Shown here in pieces: positions 50,366-60,965 of a stretch of DNA of 64,000 nucleotides (positions are counted from its first letter, which is position 1; every line of letters begins with the position of its first letter). The position numbers and the translations under genes were made by a program. The notes under the pieces are model-generated. The model did no database searches and was not told where the DNA came from. It saw nothing but the letters and a program-made list of their open reading frames with translations. Source of the stretch: Pseudomonadota bacterium. Lineage in GTDB: Bacteria > Pseudomonadota > Gammaproteobacteria > Steroidobacterales > Woeseiaceae. The stretch spans positions 1,576 to 65,575 of the forward strand of contig JBCBNU010000008.1 in NCBI GenBank assembly GCA_039821645.1, read 5' to 3'.

Positions 50366-52239
50366 TCGCGGACTCTGTTTTTCCAGCGCGGTGAGCGATA
50401 GAGCTCATCGACGAACGCGATATTTCCAGACTCAGCATAGGTGTGGATGCCAATGGCGCCGCTTCTGGTGCGAGGTGGAATATGCTCAAGCAGAACCTCT
50501 CGATAGTCGGTGGTCGACAGCGCTGTGACCTCCATGAAATTCAATCCGTAGCCGTAGCGATAGGTGCAATCCTGAGTCGGTCGAATCAGACGACCGTTTT
50601 TTTCGATCATTGCACCGCCCGGGCGCGAGGTCCTGCAATCGGAGACCACTGGGTTGAGTGGGTGCGCCTGCCACGGACCCACAAGATCCTCCGCAAAGTA
50701 GAGAAAACACTCATCCTGGGAAGACACCGCAGGGTGCGACTTCACGTTGGCGAACATCCACCACAGGCCATCACGTCGCAGCAGCGTCGCGTCCGACGCG
50801 TCAATGTCCTGCATTAGCACCGAGTGCAATGTCCACTCGTCGGGAAACGCGGTCGCCTTGTATAACTCGATCGTTTGGTTGGCTGACGTTTCTGGCAGCA
50901 TGTAGTACTCGCCACTGACGTCGAGAATCTGCGGATAGGAAAGGTGATAAGGGCGCTGCAATATCATTCGTGTGCCGCCGTCAGGCCTGCCGTTGGCATC
51001 GAGGGACACTCGGGATAGATGCCCGAGTTTACGCCGGTCACAGTACTCCTCAAAAAACAGGAATCGTGATTCACCGCTGACATGAATAAACGGGTCTGCC
51101 CGATAAATCCGGTCGGGGTTGTGCTGGACTTCGGCGAGTCGTGTCTCGCCGGTCAGCGCAAATGGTGTGGCCCGACGCAATCGCCATCGCTGCTCAAACA
51201 AATTGTTATCGACAAGTGCAATCGCTTTGCGAAAAACAGCGCGCACAACGTACAGGCTGTATGCGAGTGCGCCAGGGTGTGGCGCCGAGAAATTGCGCTC
51301 GAAGGATTGGTCGACCCTGGTGCGACAATCAGCGAAAAAGGCATTCGCCCCCAGCTGGCGCATACGCTGGACTGCCCGAGGGATACCAAACAGCATCTTC
51401 CAGTAATGGCGAGAGATGTTGTCTCTTGTCGAGTGGCGACTGGTTGCCATCCACGACTCCGCCAGAACGATTGGTGCGCGATCGGCAAACGTGACTGCGA
51501 GAGTGGATCGCGTCAGTGGCGCACCTTTGAGCACCGGCCAGAATCCAGCAGGGTAAGCCTGTGCGATGCCGGCGGGTGAACCGAGTAAAGACCAGACACC
51601 AAATCTGGCACTGGTAATCACTTCGGAGGGAACCGCTCGCAATCCACAATGCACAACCACATCGACATTCAGATCAACCAGGTGCTTGCGATCTGACTCC
51701 GAAAATGTGCCCGGAAGATCGACCAATACCTCACTGTCGAGATCCGCATCGCAACGACGCCAGGCGTCGGCGAAAACGAGGTTCCGATCAACGAGCTTTC
51801 GGTAGCTCGCCATCAAACGCCGTCGCATGCCACGACGCAAGCGCCCGTCCTGCCATCGAGGCTTGCTGCCTGGAGTCCGTCCGCCACGTCTGCGATCGTG
51901 CGCAATCATCACACCAGCGATTTCGACGCCATCATCCTGCGTGAAGCAATCCAGCAACTCGGCCACCCATGCAGGGATGGCGTATCGATCTAGAAAGAGT
52001 GCAACACGGGTTGGTAATTGTGATTCTTGTTCGCTCAACGCGTTCAAATCGCAGGTAGCTGAATGCCCAGAGTCTAATCGCTTCACGTGGGCGGCACGAG
52101 TCCGACCGGAGTGTCGGTTTCCCAACGTGGTTGTCTGCATTCTGCGACAGACCGAAGAGCCCGCTGCTTTCAGAGGGTTGCGCAGTGCATCTCGGCAAGC
52201 GGTGACCGGCCTGTTTCTGTCTGACGACACTTCGCCCAT
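50362..52239 (-). CDS. Two-domain protein: degenerate formyltransferase-like N-terminal domain plus GINT1/GH43-like beta-propeller-like C-terminal domain; start uncertain
   Basis: The N-terminal half resembles the formyltransferase fold (DVVVHCGLRAVPSEVITSARFGVWSL), but the catalytic N..H is not evident. The C-terminal half contains ADPFIHVSGESRFLFFEEY...YPQILDVSGEYYMLPETS...FPDEWT. The first ~85 codons are Arg-rich and probably not translated. Confidence 0.5.
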   Translation of the reverse strand: MGEVSSDRNRPVTACRDALRNPLKAAGSSVCRRMQTTTLGNRHSGRTRAAHVKRLDSGHSATCDLNALSEQESQLPTRVALFLDRYAIPAWVAELLDCFTQDDGVEIAGVMIAHDRRRGGRTPGSKPRWQDGRLRRGMRRRLMASYRKLVDRNLVFADAWRRCDADLDSEVLVDLPGTFSESDRKHLVDLNVDVVVHCGLRAVPSEVITSARFGVWSLLGSPAGIAQAYPAGFWPVLKGAPLTRSTLAVTFADRAPIVLAESWMATSRHSTRDNISRHYWKMLFGIPRAVQRMRQLGANAFFADCRTRVDQSFERNFSAPHPGALAYSLYVVRAVFRKAIALVDNNLFEQRWRLRRATPFALTGETRLAEVQHNPDRIYRADPFIHVSGESRFLFFEEYCDRRKLGHLSRVSLDANGRPDGGTRMILQRPYHLSYPQILDVSGEYYMLPETSANQTIELYKATAFPDEWTLHSVLMQDIDASDATLLRRDGLWWMFANVKSHPAVSSQDECFLYFAEDLVGPWQAHPLNPVVSDCRTSRPGGAMIEKNGRLIRPTQDCTYRYGYGLNFMEVTALSTTDYREVLLEHIPPRTRSGAIGIHTYAESGNIAFVDELYRSPRWKNRVRD

Positions 52240-52461
52240 TTTGGGCTTCTGAATAGCAAAACTCGCAATCGGTGCAAAAACAGGCAGTTAGATGCAAATC
52301 TGCGCGTCTGAAATTTGTGGCACAAAAGTTGCTTTACTTAACTTGGATTCGAAGCGCGTCGAGCCTGCACATCGTGGTTTTTGACGCGAGCATTACGTGA
52401 CACAAGCCTCAATTCGACGCTATGGCGCTGTCGGCGCGATCACAGGGTCGGCACACTAAGC

Positions 52462-52552
52462 GGCAGTTGAAAAGGCATAACCGTCGAAAGGCGGCGACGC
52501 AAAGCTACCGGTCTACAGGCGAGAGCCCACGACGGCGGAGTTACCAAACTCG
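52462..52552 (+). promoter_or_regulatory. c-di-GMP-I (GEMM) riboswitch aptamer in the 5' leader of lipoprotein gene 52638-53978
   Basis: The sequence is AAAAGGCAUAACCGUCGAAAGGCGGCGACGCAAAGCUACCGGUCUACAGGCGAGAGCCCACGACGGCGGAGUUACCAAAC. It matches conserved GEMM-I blocks as recalled from V. cholerae Vc2 (GGCAAACC..GAAAG..GGACGCAAAGCC.CCGG.CUA....GGUAGCGGGGUUACCGA). The first hairpin is CCGUC-GAAA-GGCGG, closed by a GNRA loop. The second arm is capped by GGC-GAGA-GCC. GGCAUAAC can pair with GUUACC to close the junction. Confidence 0.7.
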
Positions 52553-52637
52553 GGAGAGGCAGCCCTGCTTCTCTGTCTGCCGAAAACCGTGTATCCCAGC
52601 GTTCGTCGTCTCGACCTGACCAGGTGAAACAACGAGC

Positions 52638-53978
52638 ATGACACGCCGTATTCTCAGTCAGACAAAGCGATTTCCCACTCTGCTCGCGGTAGCGGGTTGT
52701 TCACTTGCTCTCGCGGCCTGCTCGGGCAGCGAAGATGCAACCGAGAACACGATTTTGGACGGTGGTGCTGGACCCACACCGACTCCAGTCGACAGCCAGC
52801 CGCCTCAGATCAGCATTTTGACGCCCGACGACGACGGGCGTGCCGAGACCAGCTCGACGGTTATTTCGCTGACCGGGCAAGCCTCGGACAATGTAGATGT
52901 TCAGAGCTTGGGATGGTCGAGCAATCGCGGCGATAGCGGTGACATCACCGTATCGTCCAACTGGATCAGTCCGCAAATATCGGTCTTCTCCGGCAGCAAC
53001 GTGATCACGGTGACCGCCGAAGACGCCGCTGGCAACACCGCCAGTGACACGATCACGATTGTGTTCGAGCCCAATTCGGCGCCGGAACCCGCGATGGGGA
53101 TGGTGAGCTTCAATCCTGATCTCACCAACCCGATCCGACTCGCAGACAACACGATTTCACGGCAGTTCGCCTATTTGTTTTTCGAACCCAATTCAGAGTG
53201 GATTGATCGCGGCGTCAGCCGAGTGGAGTTTTCGTGCTGCCGCTCGGTTACCGGCACGCCCGAACCACATTTGCCGACCGTCACCGACAGCGCGGCGCCG
53301 TGGGCGTTACCCATCGACCTCGTTCAGTTCGCAGCGGGCACGCGACGCGAGCTCTCCATCGATGTGATTTTCGCGGACAATGGCGAACGAGTGACGCAGC
53401 GAGTCGAATTCAACCTGGCGACCGCGAGTGGCGGCAACAACCGTGCACCGATCATCAGTGGCAACGCGCCTGGGACGGTCGTTGCGGGCGAAAACTACAG
53501 CTTCGTGCCGACGGCGAGCGATCCGGATGGCGACATGCTGACCTTTAGCGTGAGCAACCTGCCCCGCTGGGCATCGTTCGATCCGGTGACCGGCGAGATT
53601 TCGGGCACACCGGCCAACGGTGATGTTGGTCTGTTTCGTAATATTCGAATTCGCGTCTCCGATGGCATCAATACCGTGTCGCTGCCGCGTTTCGATGTGC
53701 AAGTCGATGCGGTGGCACTGCGTTCGGTGACGCTTAACTGGACGCCACCGACGCGTCGCGAGGACGGCTCACCGCTCAACGGCCTTTCGGGATATCAGGT
53801 CTACTACGGCCAGGTATCGGGCGTTTATCCGAACCGCAGATCGGTCAACGACGGCTCGATTTCGAGCTTCACGCTCGACAGCCTCCAGCCGGGAACGTGG
53901 TACGTAGCGATCACCTCGATAGACAACAACGGACTGGAAAGTGCGCTGTCGAATGAGGTCGCCAAACAGGCGCAATAA
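52638..53978 (+). CDS. Lipoprotein with Ig-like domains, a dystroglycan/cadherin-like 'putative Ig' domain and a C-terminal fibronectin type III domain
   Basis: The lipobox is SLALAAC. The Ig-like segment is NVITVTAEDAAGNTASDTITIVF. The putative-Ig segment is NRAPIISGNAPGTVVAGENYSFVPTASDPDGDMLTFSVSNLPRWASFDPVTGEISGTP. The FN3 segment is VTLNWTPPTRREDGSPLNGLSGYQVYYG...WYVAITSIDNNGLES. Confidence 0.8.
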   Translation: MTRRILSQTKRFPTLLAVAGCSLALAACSGSEDATENTILDGGAGPTPTPVDSQPPQISILTPDDDGRAETSSTVISLTGQASDNVDVQSLGWSSNRGDSGDITVSSNWISPQISVFSGSNVITVTAEDAAGNTASDTITIVFEPNSAPEPAMGMVSFNPDLTNPIRLADNTISRQFAYLFFEPNSEWIDRGVSRVEFSCCRSVTGTPEPHLPTVTDSAAPWALPIDLVQFAAGTRRELSIDVIFADNGERVTQRVEFNLATASGGNNRAPIISGNAPGTVVAGENYSFVPTASDPDGDMLTFSVSNLPRWASFDPVTGEISGTPANGDVGLFRNIRIRVSDGINTVSLPRFDVQVDAVALRSVTLNWTPPTRREDGSPLNGLSGYQVYYGQVSGVYPNRRSVNDGSISSFTLDSLQPGTWYVAITSIDNNGLESALSNEVAKQAQ

Positions 53979-54009: not shown

Positions 54010-54035
54010 CGCCGCGAAAACAGCGCGGATTTTTG
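54010..54035 (+). terminator. Probable Rho-independent terminator after the first FN3 lipoprotein gene
   Basis: GCCGCG-AAAACA-GCGCGG is followed by ATTTTT, about 30 nt after the stop codon. The stem is short (5-6 bp). Confidence 0.5.
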
Positions 54036-54181
54036 CACGTTGCTTGAAACATGCCTGCTAAGTTACTGACGCCAATACACTAAATTGCTGCCGGTTTTTT
54101 TCGACAGTTGAGACCGGCGCATCTAGACCCGCATCATTCTGTCATGCGATTAAACATATTCCTCTTGCGGAGGTTCGATCA

Positions 54182-54619
54182 ATGATGTCGACAACCACCG
54201 CACACGGGTTGTTTTGTGCCCGTGCAACGCTCGTCGGCGCTGCAGCGCTGCTGTCCGTTATGCTTGCCGCCTGTGGTGGCGGTGGCGGCGGTAACCCGGA
54301 TAGCCGCACGGTTAGCACAGGCTCACCGAGCGGCTCCGGTGGTACCCCACCGCCGACGAACGGAAACATTGAGGTCGCGTGGACCCCGCCAACGGCGAAG
54401 GTCGACGGAACGGCGCTCACCGATCTTGCGGGGTATCGTTTCTATCTCGGTCGCGAGAGCGGGCGATACAGCGAAATGGTTCCGGTCAACAATCCTGGGC
54501 TCTCGCGATTGGTTCTGGAAAACCTCGAGGGCGGTACGTGGTTCGTGGCAATGACCTCCATGCGTCGCAATGGCGTGGAGAGTGATCTATCTAACGAGGT
54601 GGCAAAATCCACCAACTAA
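54182..54619 (+). CDS. Small lipoprotein consisting of a Gly/Pro linker and one FN3 domain (paralogue of the C-terminus of 52638-53978)
   Basis: The lipobox is VMLAAC. The FN3 segment is IEVAWTPPTAKVDGTALTDLAGYRFYLG...WFVAMTSMRRNGVESDLSNEVAK, which parallels VTLNWTPP...WYVAITSIDNNGLESALSNEVAK in the larger protein. Confidence 0.75.
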   Translation: MMSTTTAHGLFCARATLVGAAALLSVMLAACGGGGGGNPDSRTVSTGSPSGSGGTPPPTNGNIEVAWTPPTAKVDGTALTDLAGYRFYLGRESGRYSEMVPVNNPGLSRLVLENLEGGTWFVAMTSMRRNGVESDLSNEVAKSTN

Positions 54620-55763: not shown

Positions 55764-56375
55764 TCATCGATCGCCTCGGCCGAACCATCGAACCAGCCGG
55801 CGACGGATACGCTTCAGGATTGGCTCTGCCCGCCGTGATTCGGCGGTATTCGCGCGTGGAAATGGTTTAGCGGGCACCTGATGCCCAAGAAAGCCGCATA
55901 ACGCTTGCCATCCATCTCCCGCAGTCAAGTCCATGATCAGCAAATCGTCGGGCCGGTCTTTAAAGTACTCACGAACTTCTTGCCCGTGTTGCCGGTAACG
56001 TTCGAGGTAAATCGATTCATTACCCTCTGGAGCACCTGCATCGGCACCGTAGATCATCTTGCGCATGGGAGTTGTTCGGGTACCAAAGTGCTTCACCTGG
56101 CTTCGAACCCATCCGTCAGCATCACGCTCGGTCAGGACAAATTTGCTGCCGGGATAACGCGCATCCAGCTCTTTGAAAACGATCGGCCAAGGGTTGTCCT
56201 GAAACGCATCGTACTCGGTAACGGCCTGCTCGATGATCGACCAGAGGTTCTCGGCAATATCCGGATCATGCACGCCGTTCGGCCCGGTTACTCGATACCC
56301 GAGTTCGCGCAGCGCCACCGTCATACTGGAGGTGCCGGTCTTGTGAAACCCGATGCAGAAAACCTTGGCCTTCAT
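55764..56375 (-). CDS. Sulfotransferase (P-loop-like, Sulfotransfer_4-type)
   Basis: The PAPS 5'-phosphosulfate-binding loop lies at the N-terminus: KVFCIGFHKTGTSSM. The ATG at 56375 has GGGGAG upstream. The track start at 56465 adds 30 Arg-rich residues. Confidence 0.7.
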   Translation of the reverse strand: MKAKVFCIGFHKTGTSSMTVALRELGYRVTGPNGVHDPDIAENLWSIIEQAVTEYDAFQDNPWPIVFKELDARYPGSKFVLTERDADGWVRSQVKHFGTRTTPMRKMIYGADAGAPEGNESIYLERYRQHGQEVREYFKDRPDDLLIMDLTAGDGWQALCGFLGHQVPAKPFPRANTAESRRAEPILKRIRRRLVRWFGRGDR

Positions 56376-56388
56376 CACTCTAGCTCCC

Positions 56389-57537
56389 CTACCGCACCGA
56401 CGGCTTCCACGTCGTGATTCGCTTCCCGCGAACAAACTGAATCGCGGCGAGCCCGATTGCCGCATTCACCTGGGCAAAGAAGAACACGACGCGCATCAGC
56501 CCACTTTCACGCAATACGGGGGCAACCCAGGCCATCAATGCCGCGCCGTAGAACAGCAATTGCGCGACCAAGGCCAGCAGGACCAAAGGGGACTTCGGTA
56601 CAAGCAATGTCGAGACAGCCAGTGCGAGGAGAAACCACGGGACCAGCCAGCGCATGATCTTGTGACTCCACACTTGAAACGCGAACCAACCCATCTTCGG
56701 GAAGCTCAACACCACAGGAGCACGCGCCACTGCAGTCATCCCTCGAATCACCGTGCGCACCTTGCGCTGAAACTCTTTCGCAGGATTCTTGATGTCTTTG
56801 TAGACGCCGATCACCGCCGGACTGGACACCGCGACGAGACCCTGGCGGGCGCAATTGAGTGCCGTGTTGAAGTCGCTGGGCGACACAATATCCCAGTCAC
56901 GACACACGCTTGCTCGCGCTGCGAAAAAAGAGCCACTCAGTCCCACCAGCCCGGCCAATCGAGACTCCTGCGCCCTCAGCCACATCTCATAGCGTACGTA
57001 CAATCCTTCGCCGGCCACCTCACCATCATCGGTGATAAAGCGGTCTTCGCTCGAAACCGCGCCGACGGTTGGGTCACGAAATACGTCGACGAGATTGCGG
57101 ATGGCTTCCACCGGAACCGACGTTGCTGCATCCGAAAACACGAGGATGTCGCCTGTCGCCGCCTTGACCGCAAGCGATTGCGCGTACTCTTTACCAAGAT
57201 GCTCGTCGGCGCGAACCAAAGTGACCCCTTCAGTGCGGCTGACAATCTCATCGGTTTCATCTGTCGAACAATCCGATGCGACGAGAATCTCAAATCGATC
57301 ATCGGGATAATCGATAGCGAGGCTATTGGCGAGCTTCTCCTCGATACGGGCCGCTTCATTGTGCGCCGCGATAATCAATGTCACCGAAGGTAGCGCGTCT
57401 TCCGTTGCAGCACCGGGCTCGCGCTTCGGCAACAACATCAGAATCAGGGGGTACAGGAAGTAGCTATAGACGGCACAAATCGCCAAAAAAACCACCAGCG
57501 CATCGGTCCAAAATGTACTCATCTGCGTGTACTCCAA
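56389..57537 (-). CDS. Membrane-embedded family-2 glycosyltransferase (TM - GT2 - multi-TM, synthase-like topology)
   Basis: The GT2 core is VTLIIAAHNEAARIEEKL...ILVASDCSTDETDEIV...VFSDAATS. There is one N-terminal TM segment and 3-4 C-terminal TM segments. QRKVRT lies at the position where processive synthases carry Q(Q/R)xRW. Confidence 0.85.
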   Translation of the reverse strand: MEYTQMSTFWTDALVVFLAICAVYSYFLYPLILMLLPKREPGAATEDALPSVTLIIAAHNEAARIEEKLANSLAIDYPDDRFEILVASDCSTDETDEIVSRTEGVTLVRADEHLGKEYAQSLAVKAATGDILVFSDAATSVPVEAIRNLVDVFRDPTVGAVSSEDRFITDDGEVAGEGLYVRYEMWLRAQESRLAGLVGLSGSFFAARASVCRDWDIVSPSDFNTALNCARQGLVAVSSPAVIGVYKDIKNPAKEFQRKVRTVIRGMTAVARAPVVLSFPKMGWFAFQVWSHKIMRWLVPWFLLALAVSTLLVPKSPLVLLALVAQLLFYGAALMAWVAPVLRESGLMRVVFFFAQVNAAIGLAAIQFVRGKRITTWKPSVR

Positions 57538-58400
57538 TGGGACAAATCACGCTCGATCAGTTTTCCAAGCAGGGCCACTTCCGGTGCAAACTCTGCGCGC
57601 AGTTGCGCTGCGAATTTCGGATCGCGTTGCGGCGTGCTGACGCCGCGGCGGTTGAATGCCCGCAACCGCTGTCCCAGCCCGAGCGACTGAATACCGAGCA
57701 GGCGCTTTGCGCCGCTGAGGCTTCGGCTCACCCACGCCGGTGGTCTGCGCACAAAGTGCTCCAGAGCTCGCGACTTATGCCCCTTTCGCGCGTTGTAAGC
57801 AGAAGCGTCCTCAATCGTGTGAGACGGCAGATCAAGGAAACGAAGTACTTCGGAGTACTGCTGCACAGAATCTGCCTTCAGATCCTCGAACACAACAAAG
57901 TGGATTTGTTCTCTTGGCACACGAGACAGGAGACGTTCGACCTGGGATCCCAATGCACACGCTGCCCGATAGTTTCGAATGCGCCCCGGCTCGTTCGGTT
58001 GCGCCATCCAGGCACGCTCCGGCGATGCCTCGGACTCTGACATGTTGTAGAGAAACTGCGAATGCAGCGAAAAAAACATATCCGCGGGATCACGCAGCAT
58101 CACCACTAGCTTTGCATCCGGCCGAAACCGCAGAATGTTGTCAACCGCTGTCTCAGAAAACAAATACCAGGTGGATGCCTCCCCCATCCGAGTGGCAGAA
58201 GGATCGGCGTTTTCAAAGAGTGCAAGGTAATCCCGTTCTGTCTGCACCGTCCGCATCTTCGGAAGATCCGTCGAAAAGAAGTTTGGCTCCTTGGGCTTGC
58301 ACACAAAAACGTTGGGATGCCGATCGAGGTAGACCCACATCGAGCTCGTACCAGACTTGGGCGCGCCGATGATAAAGAACTCGGGTTTCAAACTGCCCAC
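57519..58400 (-). CDS. Sulfotransferase (Sulfotransfer_1/3-type)
   Basis: The 5'-PSB loop is FIIGAPKSGTSSM. The 3'-PB region is VVMLRDPADMFFSLHSQ. Confidence 0.85.
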   Translation of the reverse strand: MGSLKPEFFIIGAPKSGTSSMWVYLDRHPNVFVCKPKEPNFFSTDLPKMRTVQTERDYLALFENADPSATRMGEASTWYLFSETAVDNILRFRPDAKLVVMLRDPADMFFSLHSQFLYNMSESEASPERAWMAQPNEPGRIRNYRAACALGSQVERLLSRVPREQIHFVVFEDLKADSVQQYSEVLRFLDLPSHTIEDASAYNARKGHKSRALEHFVRRPPAWVSRSLSGAKRLLGIQSLGLGQRLRAFNRRGVSTPQRDPKFAAQLRAEFAPEVALLGKLIERDLSHWSTRR

Positions 58401-58409
58401 CGATTCGCC

Positions 58410-59243
58410 CTATAAAATTTCATAACCAAAGTGACGAAGGGAGTCACCAGCAACTCGATTCACTATCGCGATTTGTTCAGGAGTCAGCTTCTCGATGCTG
58501 ATTTGATTCATGTTTCGAACCGCTTCTTTGCGTTCATGAATCGCCAGCGCCTCCGGACGATAGAAACCCTGCGTCGTATTGAGACCCGCAAACTCGGCGA
58601 CCCGCGCCAGCGCCGCTTCAGGGTCTTCGCACAGATCCTCATACTTCAGCCACATGAGGTTATCGAGGTGTTCAGCATCCTCGAGCAAGACGTCGTTGCC
58701 ACGCGCCCACTGACGCGCTGACATTTCGATTGGCCAGCCTTCATCGAAGTGCTTCGGATCCCCCTTACGGGTAATGCCCTCAGCCACGGCGTACCCATTC
58801 CTGACCAGCGCCACGAAGTACGCATCCTTGAAGTGCGCCTGCAGCCACCGAGTCCGAGCGGAATTGGGCGGTGACTTCTCCATGAACACTTCGCCCTGCC
58901 CGCGCGCGCGCATGCCCCACTCGCGTTTGATGCGCACCGCGTCGGGTCCGGCATCGTGTTCGGTGAGACGGAAAAGGGACTCTTTTTCAACCCACATCCG
59001 TGGCACACCGATCGCATAGTCCTTGACGAGCTGATCGGTGATGAAGTGTCCTTCGGTCGGCAGCGAACGTATTTCCGGGTGGCGAGACAACAATTCAGCG
59101 AGGAGCGTGGTCCCCGAGTTGTAGCAACCGACAAGAAACAACCATCTCTTCGGCGATGGAACAGGCGTCAGCGCAATTCGCACCTCTCGCCACATATTGC
59201 CAAGGCTTTCCCGGAATACCGATTTGAGTCGTGTCCCAGCCAT
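58410..59243 (-). CDS. Sulfotransferase (Sulfotransfer_3-type)
   Basis: The 5'-PSB-like loop is LFLVGCYNSGTTLLAELL. The second motif region is YFVALVRNGYAVAEG. Confidence 0.75.
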   Translation of the reverse strand: MAGTRLKSVFRESLGNMWREVRIALTPVPSPKRWLFLVGCYNSGTTLLAELLSRHPEIRSLPTEGHFITDQLVKDYAIGVPRMWVEKESLFRLTEHDAGPDAVRIKREWGMRARGQGEVFMEKSPPNSARTRWLQAHFKDAYFVALVRNGYAVAEGITRKGDPKHFDEGWPIEMSARQWARGNDVLLEDAEHLDNLMWLKYEDLCEDPEAALARVAEFAGLNTTQGFYRPEALAIHERKEAVRNMNQISIEKLTPEQIAIVNRVAGDSLRHFGYEIL

Positions 59244-59355: not shown

Positions 59356-60198
59356 ATGTATATCAGCGAAAAACTCGCGTTCGTCGAACTGCATAAGACC
59401 GGCGGGTCGCATATCGGTCGTTGGCTCGCGAAAACCTTACCGGGCGAGCAGATCGGCAAACATAATCGTCTCGCACCGGAGCACTATGACAAATTCGTCG
59501 TTGGCTCCGTACGTAACCCCTGGGATTGGTACGTCTCGCTCTGGGCCTACGGCTGCTCATCACGCGGCAGCGTCTGGAAGCAAACAACAGACGCCCCGAA
59601 CTGGGCCTACTATCGACGCTCTCTTCACCGCGAAATGGGCCGGCGACGGACGGGGCCAGCAATCGCTATACGTCAATGGTTCAACGATCGGCGTAAACCG
59701 CGAAGTGAGTGGCAGCGCACCTATAGTGACTCGAGCAATCCCGCTGCTTTCCAACGCTGGCTCAAGATGATGCTCAATCCCGGCCGAAGTCTTGATCTGC
59801 GCGAGGGCTACGGGTTTTCCTGGGTAGCCGAGCGGGCCGGCTTGATGAGCTATCGATACATCAAATTATTCACCAGCATCGGCGACGCGCTCTACCAAAC
59901 GAGGCATCAAGAGCCCATCGATGTGTTAATTGATCGTCTGGGATTTGTAGACGCGTTTGTGCGGACCGAGCAACTGGAGCCCGACCTGGTCGCTGCCATT
60001 GAGACTGCGCAGATCGGACTATCGTCCGAACAACGCACGGCAATTCTCGAATCCGGCGCACAGAAGACCAATACCTCTGATCGTCGATCAGCAGGCTTCT
60101 ACTACGACCCGGCAACGATCAAGCTCGTTGCAGAGCGCGAGCGCGTGATTATTGAGCGTCACGGTTACACACCGCCCGAACTTGAGAGCGCCCTATGA
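59356..60198 (+). CDS. Sulfotransferase (Sulfotransfer_2-like)
   Basis: The N-terminal loop is AFVELHKTGGSHI. The RNPW motif region is VVGSVRNPWDWYVSLWAY. Confidence 0.7.
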   Translation: MYISEKLAFVELHKTGGSHIGRWLAKTLPGEQIGKHNRLAPEHYDKFVVGSVRNPWDWYVSLWAYGCSSRGSVWKQTTDAPNWAYYRRSLHREMGRRRTGPAIAIRQWFNDRRKPRSEWQRTYSDSSNPAAFQRWLKMMLNPGRSLDLREGYGFSWVAERAGLMSYRYIKLFTSIGDALYQTRHQEPIDVLIDRLGFVDAFVRTEQLEPDLVAAIETAQIGLSSEQRTAILESGAQKTNTSDRRSAGFYYDPATIKLVAERERVIIERHGYTPPELESAL

Positions 60199-60965
60199 GT
60201 TTTCTCAAAGTCGCCTACGAGCGCTTGCTCGATGAGGAAACCCGGAAACGGATTTACAAGTGGCGGCACCCGGAACACTTCCAAAGAATGCGCGAACAGG
60301 TGAATCCCTCCGAGAAGGGTAATTTTTCACTAAAGCCATTCGACGAGCATCAATGCATCTTCGTGCATATCACCAAATCGGCGGGCACATCGGTGGCCTT
60401 GGCACTATTCGACCACCTGCCCTATCACCACACTGCACGGGACTACCGCGTGATCTACGGTCGAGACACCTTCGAGCGTTACTTCAAGTTTGCGTTCGTT
60501 CGTAATCCGTGGGATCGCCTGTATTCAGCGTACTCATACCTTCGCGGTGGAGGTTGGGATGAACACGATCAAGTATGGGCTGAAGAGCACCTGGCCCGCT
60601 TCACATCGTTTGAAGAATTCATACTTACGGCATTCTCTTGGCAGTGGCTCAGCCGACATCTGCACTTCAAGACTCAAATCGACTTTATCGGTGATCGACG
60701 ACAACAACCGATGATCGACCATCTAATGTACTTCGAAACGCTGACGACAGACTTCAACCATCTCGCACAGAAGCTGTCGCTTGACGCGCGCCTTGAACAC
60801 CGAAACCCCTCTGCCCGGGCTGGCTATAAAGAAGTCTACACGCCCGAGATGATCGCGGTGGTAGAACGGGTTTATGCTGACGACATCCGGACCTTCGGGT
60901 ACGACTTCGAAGGCATCGTGAACAGAACTCGGGTTGTCGACGGCGCCTGGACTCGCGATGACTGA
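60195..60965 (+). CDS. Sulfotransferase (Sulfotransfer_2 family)
   Basis: Motifs present are IFVHITKSAGTSV and FAFVRNPWDRLYSAYSY. The start overlaps the upstream sulfotransferase stop. Confidence 0.8.
   Translation: MSFLKVAYERLLDEETRKRIYKWRHPEHFQRMREQVNPSEKGNFSLKPFDEHQCIFVHITKSAGTSVALALFDHLPYHHTARDYRVIYGRDTFERYFKFAFVRNPWDRLYSAYSYLRGGGWDEHDQVWAEEHLARFTSFEEFILTAFSWQWLSRHLHFKTQIDFIGDRRQQPMIDHLMYFETLTTDFNHLAQKLSLDARLEHRNPSARAGYKEVYTPEMIAVVERVYADDIRTFGYDFEGIVNRTRVVDGAWTRDD

Follow-up and report, generated by a model that had tools for sequence, protein, structure and literature searches.

The leader of a lipoprotein gene in the window, i.e., the whole 64-kb stretch of DNA analysed here, carries an RNA element that is best explained as a functional c-di-GMP-I riboswitch acting as a translational OFF switch on a one-gene mRNA, a reading to which a probability of about 0.6 is assigned. 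The parts of this reading differ in strength: it is practically certain that the element is a genuine c-di-GMP-I riboswitch controlling the gene at 52638-53978, control at the level of translation is reasonably favoured by the fold models, and the OFF direction, in which c-di-GMP would lower expression, is given even odds on the same models. The riboswitch is an ordinary copy: it belongs to a well-known class and is picked up by any Rfam scan; the new points are its target in this clade and the predicted translational OFF control.

The earlier note had placed a GEMM/c-di-GMP-I riboswitch at 52462-52552 and had proposed scoring against Rfam RF01051 as a check. In a cmscan search with all 4227 Rfam families, RF01051 (c-di-GMP-I) is the sole match in the window; it covers 52464-52548 on the plus strand, within the interval proposed, with 74.0 bits (E 1.2e-12) and model positions 1-87 of 87, untruncated and far above the gathering score of 35 bits, so that the class assignment is borne out. 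A rescan of 52200-52700 at permissive thresholds returned no Rfam family besides RF01051. The features of the aptamer are the following:

52464-52550, plus strand: c-di-GMP-I aptamer (RF01051, 74 bits, full length)
52465-52469 with 52545-52550, plus strand: proposed closing helix P1 of the aptamer, assigned by eye
52481-52494, plus strand: first hairpin of the aptamer, GAAA loop, with an A-C mismatch at its base
52503-52542, plus strand: second hairpin of the aptamer, GAGA loop (RF01051 alignment)
G52474, A52501 and C52544, plus strand: predicted ligand contacts, equivalent to Vc2 G20, A47 and C92 (cmscan alignment)
C52498-G52535, plus strand: inter-helix pair, equivalent to Vc2 C44-G83 (cmscan alignment)

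All the blocks from which the motif had been recognized are present in the sequence (GGCAUAACC, CCGUC-GAAA-GGCGG, GACGCAAAGC, CCGGUCUA, a GAGA-capped second arm and GGCGGAGUUACC). The GEMM motif consists of two adjacent hairpins joined by AAA, the first of which combines stems of 2 and 6 bp with a 3-nt internal loop and is capped by a GNRA loop (PMC1950547); the first hairpin of the window follows this layout as GC / AUA / (A)CCGUC-GAAA-GGCGG(C) / GAC / GC, then AAA, the A-C mismatch being the sixth pair of its stem. With a GAAA first loop a tetraloop receptor is expected in the second hairpin, and the corresponding region (CUAC...CACGAC in the window vs CUAA...UAUGAC in the family consensus) is a variant of the receptor-like bulge. 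Mapped through the cmscan alignment, G52474 (immediately 5' to the first helix), A52501 (first in the AAA linker) and C52544 (in the 3' UUACC) would correspond to the three Vc2 residues that contact both guanines of c-di-GMP (PMC6140456, PMC4744006), and the G-to-A spacing of 27 nt is identical to that of Vc1 and Vc2. Among 30 aptamers of the order, compensatory changes occur in 10 of the 20 predicted pairs. The RF01051 score, the hairpin layout, the ligand-contact bases, the covariation and the conserved position 5' of the gene all identify the element as a member of the c-di-GMP-I class.

A single Rfam model covers both GEMM-I and GEMM-Ib, and from its score alone an aptamer for c-di-GMP cannot be told from one that senses 3',3'-cGAMP. 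This second ligand, or the decay of the aptamer to a non-functional relic, is a very remote alternative: cGAMP-sensing GEMM-Ib RNAs have an A at the Vc2 G20-equivalent position (PMC6140456), but this position is G52474 in the window and an invariant G in 30/30 aptamers of the clade, and the G20 of wild-type Vc2 discriminates against cGAMP (PMC6140456). A relic is opposed by the conservation of the aptamer, with covariation, before every orthologue of the gene. The predicted ligand is c-di-GMP and not cGAMP, because the bases equivalent to G20, A47 and C92 of Vc2 are present. The genome has 25 GGDEF-domain matches.

The regulated gene and its surroundings on the same strand comprise:

52638-53978, plus strand: regulated gene, 446-aa lipoprotein (open reading frame and Pfam)
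residues about 56-142, about 150-265, 271-356 and 350-424 of this protein: Ig-like, unassigned beta-rich, He_PIG and FN3 modules, respectively
54012-54038, plus strand: terminator-like hairpin with a T run, downstream of the lipoprotein gene (terminator scan)
54182-54619, plus strand: small paralogue, a 145-aa single-FN3 lipoprotein (tblastn)

The AUG begins 89 nt after the end of the aptamer, on the same strand, and the encoded protein has a signal peptide with the lipobox LAAC (residues 25-28), He_PIG, Big_9 and fn3 domains above the Pfam cut-off and weaker Ig-like Pfam matches at its N-terminus (residues 56-142); the Ig/FN3 lipoprotein proposed as the target in the earlier note is in this way confirmed. 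An NCBIfam search of the 446-aa protein gave no match, and its database name is 'putative Ig domain-containing protein'. Its AlphaFold model (mean pLDDT 61.6) reaches pLDDT values of about 80-85 for residues 150-355 and is low in the remainder, and Foldseek retrieves with it only generic Ig/cadherin/FN3 beta-sandwich chains, e.g., SraP, SiiE and cadherin-23. The product is an adhesin-like surface lipoprotein without a catalytic domain. The terminator-like hairpin with its T run suggests that the lipoprotein mRNA is a one-gene transcript. The 145-aa paralogue, which matches by tblastn the C-terminal FN3 end of the 446-aa protein and is retained downstream in three other species (G006, G011 and G013), is probably transcribed separately from its own promoter; a promoter-like site lies ahead of it at 54108-54137.

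The window derives from a 2.94-Mb metagenome-assembled genome with two RF01051 copies, and the family is found in 40/41 related genomes. Full-length orthologues of the lipoprotein occur in 10 of the 19 species genomes of the genus, with 46-99% identity, and the riboswitch lies directly upstream of all ten. In G010, G018, G019, G020 (twice), G032 and G039 the same class of riboswitch precedes genes for shorter He_PIG-FN3 lipoproteins. In particular, when the best-scoring match of each genome is taken, a He_PIG-FN3 gene is downstream in 11 of the 30 relatives' riboswitch loci, and in 12/32 with the window's own locus. The He_PIG-FN3 lipoprotein family is thus a principal c-di-GMP riboswitch target in the clade, and it has the riboswitch in many genera. 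The hosts are probably sediment-dwelling, uncultured gammaproteobacteria; a search of the available literature found no paper on the riboswitch-lipoprotein pairing or on this bacterial group.

Other riboswitch loci were observed in the same genomes. The second copy of the window genome (L001 1501-1586, i.e., G000:C18:13479-13564; 74.2 bits) precedes a gene for a 464-aa FAD_binding_4 / ALO-type oxidase, a pairing seen again in L030, L025, L031 and L012; the junction reads GUCGC, vs the usual GACGC, in L001, L030, L025 and L031. In L017, L019 and L028, from other families of the order (G028, G037 and G027), the riboswitch lies 280-330 nt before a pilM-like gene, assigned by eye from its N-terminal sequence, with a probable PBP1A-like gene on the other side. 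Tandem aptamer arrangements have been described for the c-di-GMP-I class, and paired aptamers 150-230 nt apart on one strand are present at G039:C84:7084-7401, G036:C35:8609-8902 and G029:C53:10073-10315. Locus L058 (G032:C1:3640500-3660499), from a complete genome, contains two units of riboswitch and short He_PIG/FN3 lipoprotein within 10 kb, adjoining a larger multi-repeat He_PIG protein.

The lipoprotein unit is located at the edge of a polysaccharide locus rich in sulfotransferases, as had been claimed and as the Pfam assignments of the flanking genes support:

55764-56465, 57519-58400, 58410-59243 and 60195-60965: sulfotransferase genes (Pfam)
59356-60198: probable fifth sulfotransferase gene, 280 aa (KTGGS motif and weak similarity)

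The flanking genes encode a DegT protein, these sulfotransferases, GT2 and GT1 glycosyltransferases and a flippase, with GNAT and GINT1-like genes on the other side of the unit. Of the five sulfotransferase genes counted earlier, four are recognized by Pfam; the product of 59356-60198 has no Pfam match but shows weak pairwise similarity (E 5e-6) to that of the adjoining Sulfotransfer_2 gene, and its KTGGS is presumably a motif of the kind found in sulfotransferase PAPS-binding loops, so it is probably the fifth of the locus. The genes next to the lipoprotein gene (DegT, sulfotransferase and GT2) are encoded on the minus strand and converge on it, so that they are not co-transcribed with it; the riboswitch can act on the lipoprotein gene only. 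The synteny with the polysaccharide locus is kept in the close relative L033 and in G006, G011 and G013, and the riboswitch-lipoprotein unit adjoins such a locus in 7/10 species. In G009, G014 and G017 (L048, L051 and L052) the unit lies between tyrA and gltX without polysaccharide genes nearby; in fact, it is tyrA and gltX that stay beside the unit throughout the genus, and the polysaccharide arm varies. The link of c-di-GMP signalling to the matrix locus drawn in the earlier note holds as adjacency but not as co-regulation: it is only a positional association, limited to some species of the genus, because the neighbours are on the opposite strand and the genes are absent nearby in three species. 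A functional tie between the lipoprotein riboswitch and the sulfated polymer is possible, adjacency being the only evidence for it, and the adjoining sulfated-polysaccharide genes should not be read as riboswitch-controlled.

The region from the aptamer to the start codon contains the candidate expression platform:

52483-52500, plus strand: aptamer segment GUCGAAAGGCGGCGACGC, first hairpin and junction, with an alternative pairing to 52599-52615
52553-52574, plus strand: spacer hairpin GGAGAGGCA-GCCC-UGCUUCUCU without a following U tract (constrained and unconstrained folds)
52599-52617, plus strand: switch element GCGUUCGUCGUCUCGACCU, complementary to 52483-52500 and to the ribosome-binding region
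52601-52640, plus strand: sequestering hairpin, occluding the Shine-Dalgarno AGGUG (52622-52626) together with the stretch up to the AUG (52638-52640)

A terminator scan called no terminator-like site between the aptamer and the AUG, in agreement with the claim that no U-tract terminator follows the aptamer. Local hairpins that bury the Shine-Dalgarno (SD) sequence and the AUG, with energies of -11.5 to -16 kcal/mol, are found in the leaders of 9/9 orthologues, and where the SD differs, the anti-SD strand differs with it (ACCU/AGGU, UUCC/GGAA, UCCC/GGGA and CACCUU/AAGGUG). In the window the start region of the 52638 gene is the third least accessible among 44 genes. These conserved hairpins are most simply explained by translational control, which makes it quite improbable that regulation takes place mainly at the RNA level, whether through ligand-dependent RNA stability as for Vc2 or through termination by Rho within the 89-nt spacer or at the beginning of the coding region. 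An RNA-level mechanism would fit the lack of an intrinsic terminator, the C-rich and G-poor composition of the spacer at 52560-52620 (C/G 1.77 vs 1.08 for the window) and the behaviour of Vc2, in which c-di-GMP binding stabilises the upstream RNA, with 3' ends just after the aptamer (10.1101/617340); the C-over-G bias is mild, however, and Rho could be secondary to a translational effect.

For translational control, the switching partner of the ribosome site would be the aptamer itself. The centroid fold of the leader pairs 52490-52500 with 52599-52610, and the duplex between aptamer and switch element is predicted by RNAduplex at -24 kcal/mol in the window and at -22 to -32 kcal/mol across the leaders, exceeding dinucleotide shuffles in 8/9 of them (p 0.004-0.10 each, mostly a weak 0.04-0.10), where the nine leaders share ancestry and are not independent trials. 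In 7/9 orthologues the best aptamer-complementary site of the leader is the 5' strand of the sequestering hairpin and ends 21-28 nt before the AUG; in G006 and G011 the site is at another place. The segment 52483-52500 is invariant in all orthologues of the genus, whereas the other riboswitches of the clade covary there, and an invariant first hairpin with an A-C mismatch would fit a second pairing constraint. The unconstrained minimum-energy fold of the window keeps the first hairpin and rearranges only the junction and the second hairpin; moreover, the GAAA-capped first hairpin is a local stem that folds immediately upon synthesis, and a strand 100 nt away may not displace it fast enough in vivo. 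As a clade-wide design, invasion of the aptamer was rejected, and the feature is specific to the full-length lipoprotein leaders, because the complementarity is non-significant in the pilM and short-lipoprotein leaders. Another candidate, a long-range helix between the bases 5' of P1 and a CUGCC/CCGCC box after the aptamer, was discarded by eye, its registers differing between close relatives.

When the aptamer is forced to fold, the start region becomes less accessible in 8/9 leaders and more accessible in none, at a cost in predicted stability of 4-12 kcal/mol in 8/9 leaders (none in G014). The Kd of Vc2 for c-di-GMP is picomolar (PMC6140456), and 4-12 kcal/mol is, as a rough estimate, in the range that picomolar-to-nanomolar ligand binding can repay. 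In the proposed OFF mechanism, transcription would probably start from a sigma-54-type promoter at 52318-52333; in the ligand-free RNA the long-range pairing of 52599-52617 with 52483-52500 would be the more stable state, leaving the ribosome site freer. Binding of c-di-GMP would lock the junction bases into the ligand pocket, so that the switch strand 52599-52617 would fold back onto the ribosome site (hairpin 52601-52637) and less protein would be translated, possibly followed by Rho-dependent termination as a secondary effect.

By the usual biofilm logic c-di-GMP would not be expected to turn off an adhesin-like protein, and the earlier note had implied the opposite, more adhesin with more c-di-GMP, which the fold analysis speaks against. 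A translational ON switch, in which c-di-GMP frees the ribosome site through a rearrangement that the folds did not capture, e.g., of P1 (52465-52469/52545-52550) and the spacer hairpin, would agree with the promotion of adhesion by c-di-GMP, and at high c-di-GMP the cell would then produce the lipoprotein along with the matrix polysaccharide, next to whose locus the lipoprotein gene lies in 7/10 species. Expression platforms are usually coupled to P1, which would fit its involvement. Furthermore, a gammaproteobacterial c-di-GMP-I riboswitch that acts positively precedes an adhesin gene, namely Vc1 before gbpA (PMC4744006), and the original description of GEMM proposed an ON model for those RNAs in which terminators compete with the second hairpin (PMC1950547). 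Nevertheless, an ON switch is considered unlikely: no element was found that pairs with the anti-SD strand solely in the presence of a folded aptamer, it is the aptamer itself that competes most strongly for the sequestering strand, and the effect of the enforced aptamer on start-site accessibility has the wrong sign in 8/9 leaders.

Upstream of the aptamer the leader has further conserved elements:

52318-52333, plus strand: sigma-54-type -24/-12 motif TGGCACaaaagTTGCT, exact TGGCAC-N5-TTGCW match
52350-52385, plus strand: variable terminator-like hairpin ending at the conserved GGTTTTTGAC (fold of nine leaders)
52392-52414, plus strand: invariant box ATTACGTGAC-N4-GCCTCAATT, with fixed spacing in 9/9 orthologues
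52429-52453, plus strand: leader hairpin UGUCGGC ... GUCGGCA just 5' of the aptamer (predicted fold, modest support)

The motif TGGCACaaaagTTGCT, the sole exact TGGCAC-N5-TTGCW match in the window, is the putative promoter of the riboswitch mRNA, with a predicted transcription start near 52344. Every full-length orthologue has it 146-154 nt upstream of the aptamer (about 146 nt in the window), and it is missing from most other riboswitch leaders. The -24 GG and -12 GC are conserved, the 5-nt spacer varies freely among orthologues, and the genome encodes rpoN and at least 12 enhancer-binding proteins with the Sigma54_activat domain; exact copies of the motif number 11 in the genome vs 2 for the reversed control. 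A sigma-70 consensus scan of the intergenic region found no promoter, and the conserved TTGAC / TTACGTGAC / GCCTCA blocks were rejected as -35/-10 elements, the would-be -10 being without the conserved A at its second position. The role of the sigma-54-type motif is uncertain because of the terminator-like hairpin between it and the aptamer, owing to which the motif may not drive the riboswitch mRNA.

This hairpin, the conserved end of which is also given as GGUUUUUGAC, is followed after 0-1 nt by a run of 5-6 U in 9/9 orthologues. It is strong in G006, G014 and G017 and weak in the window genome: the whole segment as far as the U run folds with -4.8 to -6.2 kcal/mol in G000, G016 and G001, whose hairpin beside the U run has only 3-4 bp, and with as much as -18 kcal/mol in G006 and G017. 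RNAalifold found no in-register consensus pairs from the sigma-54-type motif to the invariant box. The box, described as unique in the genome, is not enriched there (11 loose matches vs 8 for the control), and this lack of enrichment rules it out as a site of a general regulator; it matches no Rfam family and has no consensus structure by RNAalifold. At the place equivalent to 52429-52453 the orthologues have a hairpin of different sequence (GUGU...ACAC type). A tentative and rather doubtful extension of the OFF reading is that of a multi-input leader, in which a sigma-54 promoter, a terminator-like hairpin, an invariant 23-nt box and a riboswitch of unusual platform would be combined, bound c-di-GMP shielding the first hairpin and junction of the aptamer from invasion by the anti-SD strand and so turning translation OFF; if this is true, the He_PIG/FN3 lipoproteins would be surface proteins of low c-di-GMP, i.e., of dispersed or motile cells, and not biofilm adhesins.

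With the riboswitch before them in many genera, the He_PIG/FN3 lipoproteins provide a conserved direct c-di-GMP target in an uncultured group, and this conserved position makes otherwise unannotated 'putative Ig domain' proteins candidates for surface factors of the lifestyle switch. The leaders are also a compact and testable case of terminator-less translational control, possibly OFF and possibly combined with sigma-54.

Among the known systems, the GEMM-Ib 3',3'-cGAMP riboswitches of Geobacter (e.g., Gs1761) share the fold and the Rfam model with the window RNA but have an A at the Vc2 G20 position (PMC6140456), where the window and its 30 clade relatives have G. Cd1 of Clostridioides difficile and Bc1 of Bacillus thuringiensis belong to the same aptamer class, and the targets of riboswitches of this type are often surface structures or motility genes (PMC4744006; PMC11218506); Cd1 and Bc1 act via rho-independent terminators, whereas no terminator follows the window aptamer. 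Vc1 of Vibrio cholerae is, like the window RNA, a class-I aptamer with conserved contacts before a surface adhesion gene in a gammaproteobacterium (PMC4744006). Its target GbpA is a secreted chitin-binding protein instead of a He_PIG/FN3 lipoprotein, and Vc1 raises expression with c-di-GMP (PMC4744006), whereas the window RNA is predicted to be OFF. Vc2, before tfoY (VC1722) in V. cholerae, is likewise gammaproteobacterial and has the same Rfam family, the same G20/A47/C92 contacts and the GAAA loop; its target is a regulator and not a surface lipoprotein, and the switching partner proposed for the window (first hairpin and junction) is not a described Vc2 element. Unlike Vc2, the window leader has a sigma-54-type motif and an extra invariant box. 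Vc2, too, is without an intrinsic terminator after the aptamer and is reported to be an OFF switch (10.1101/617340); Vc2/tfoY is thus a precedent for a terminator-less OFF switch of the c-di-GMP-I class.
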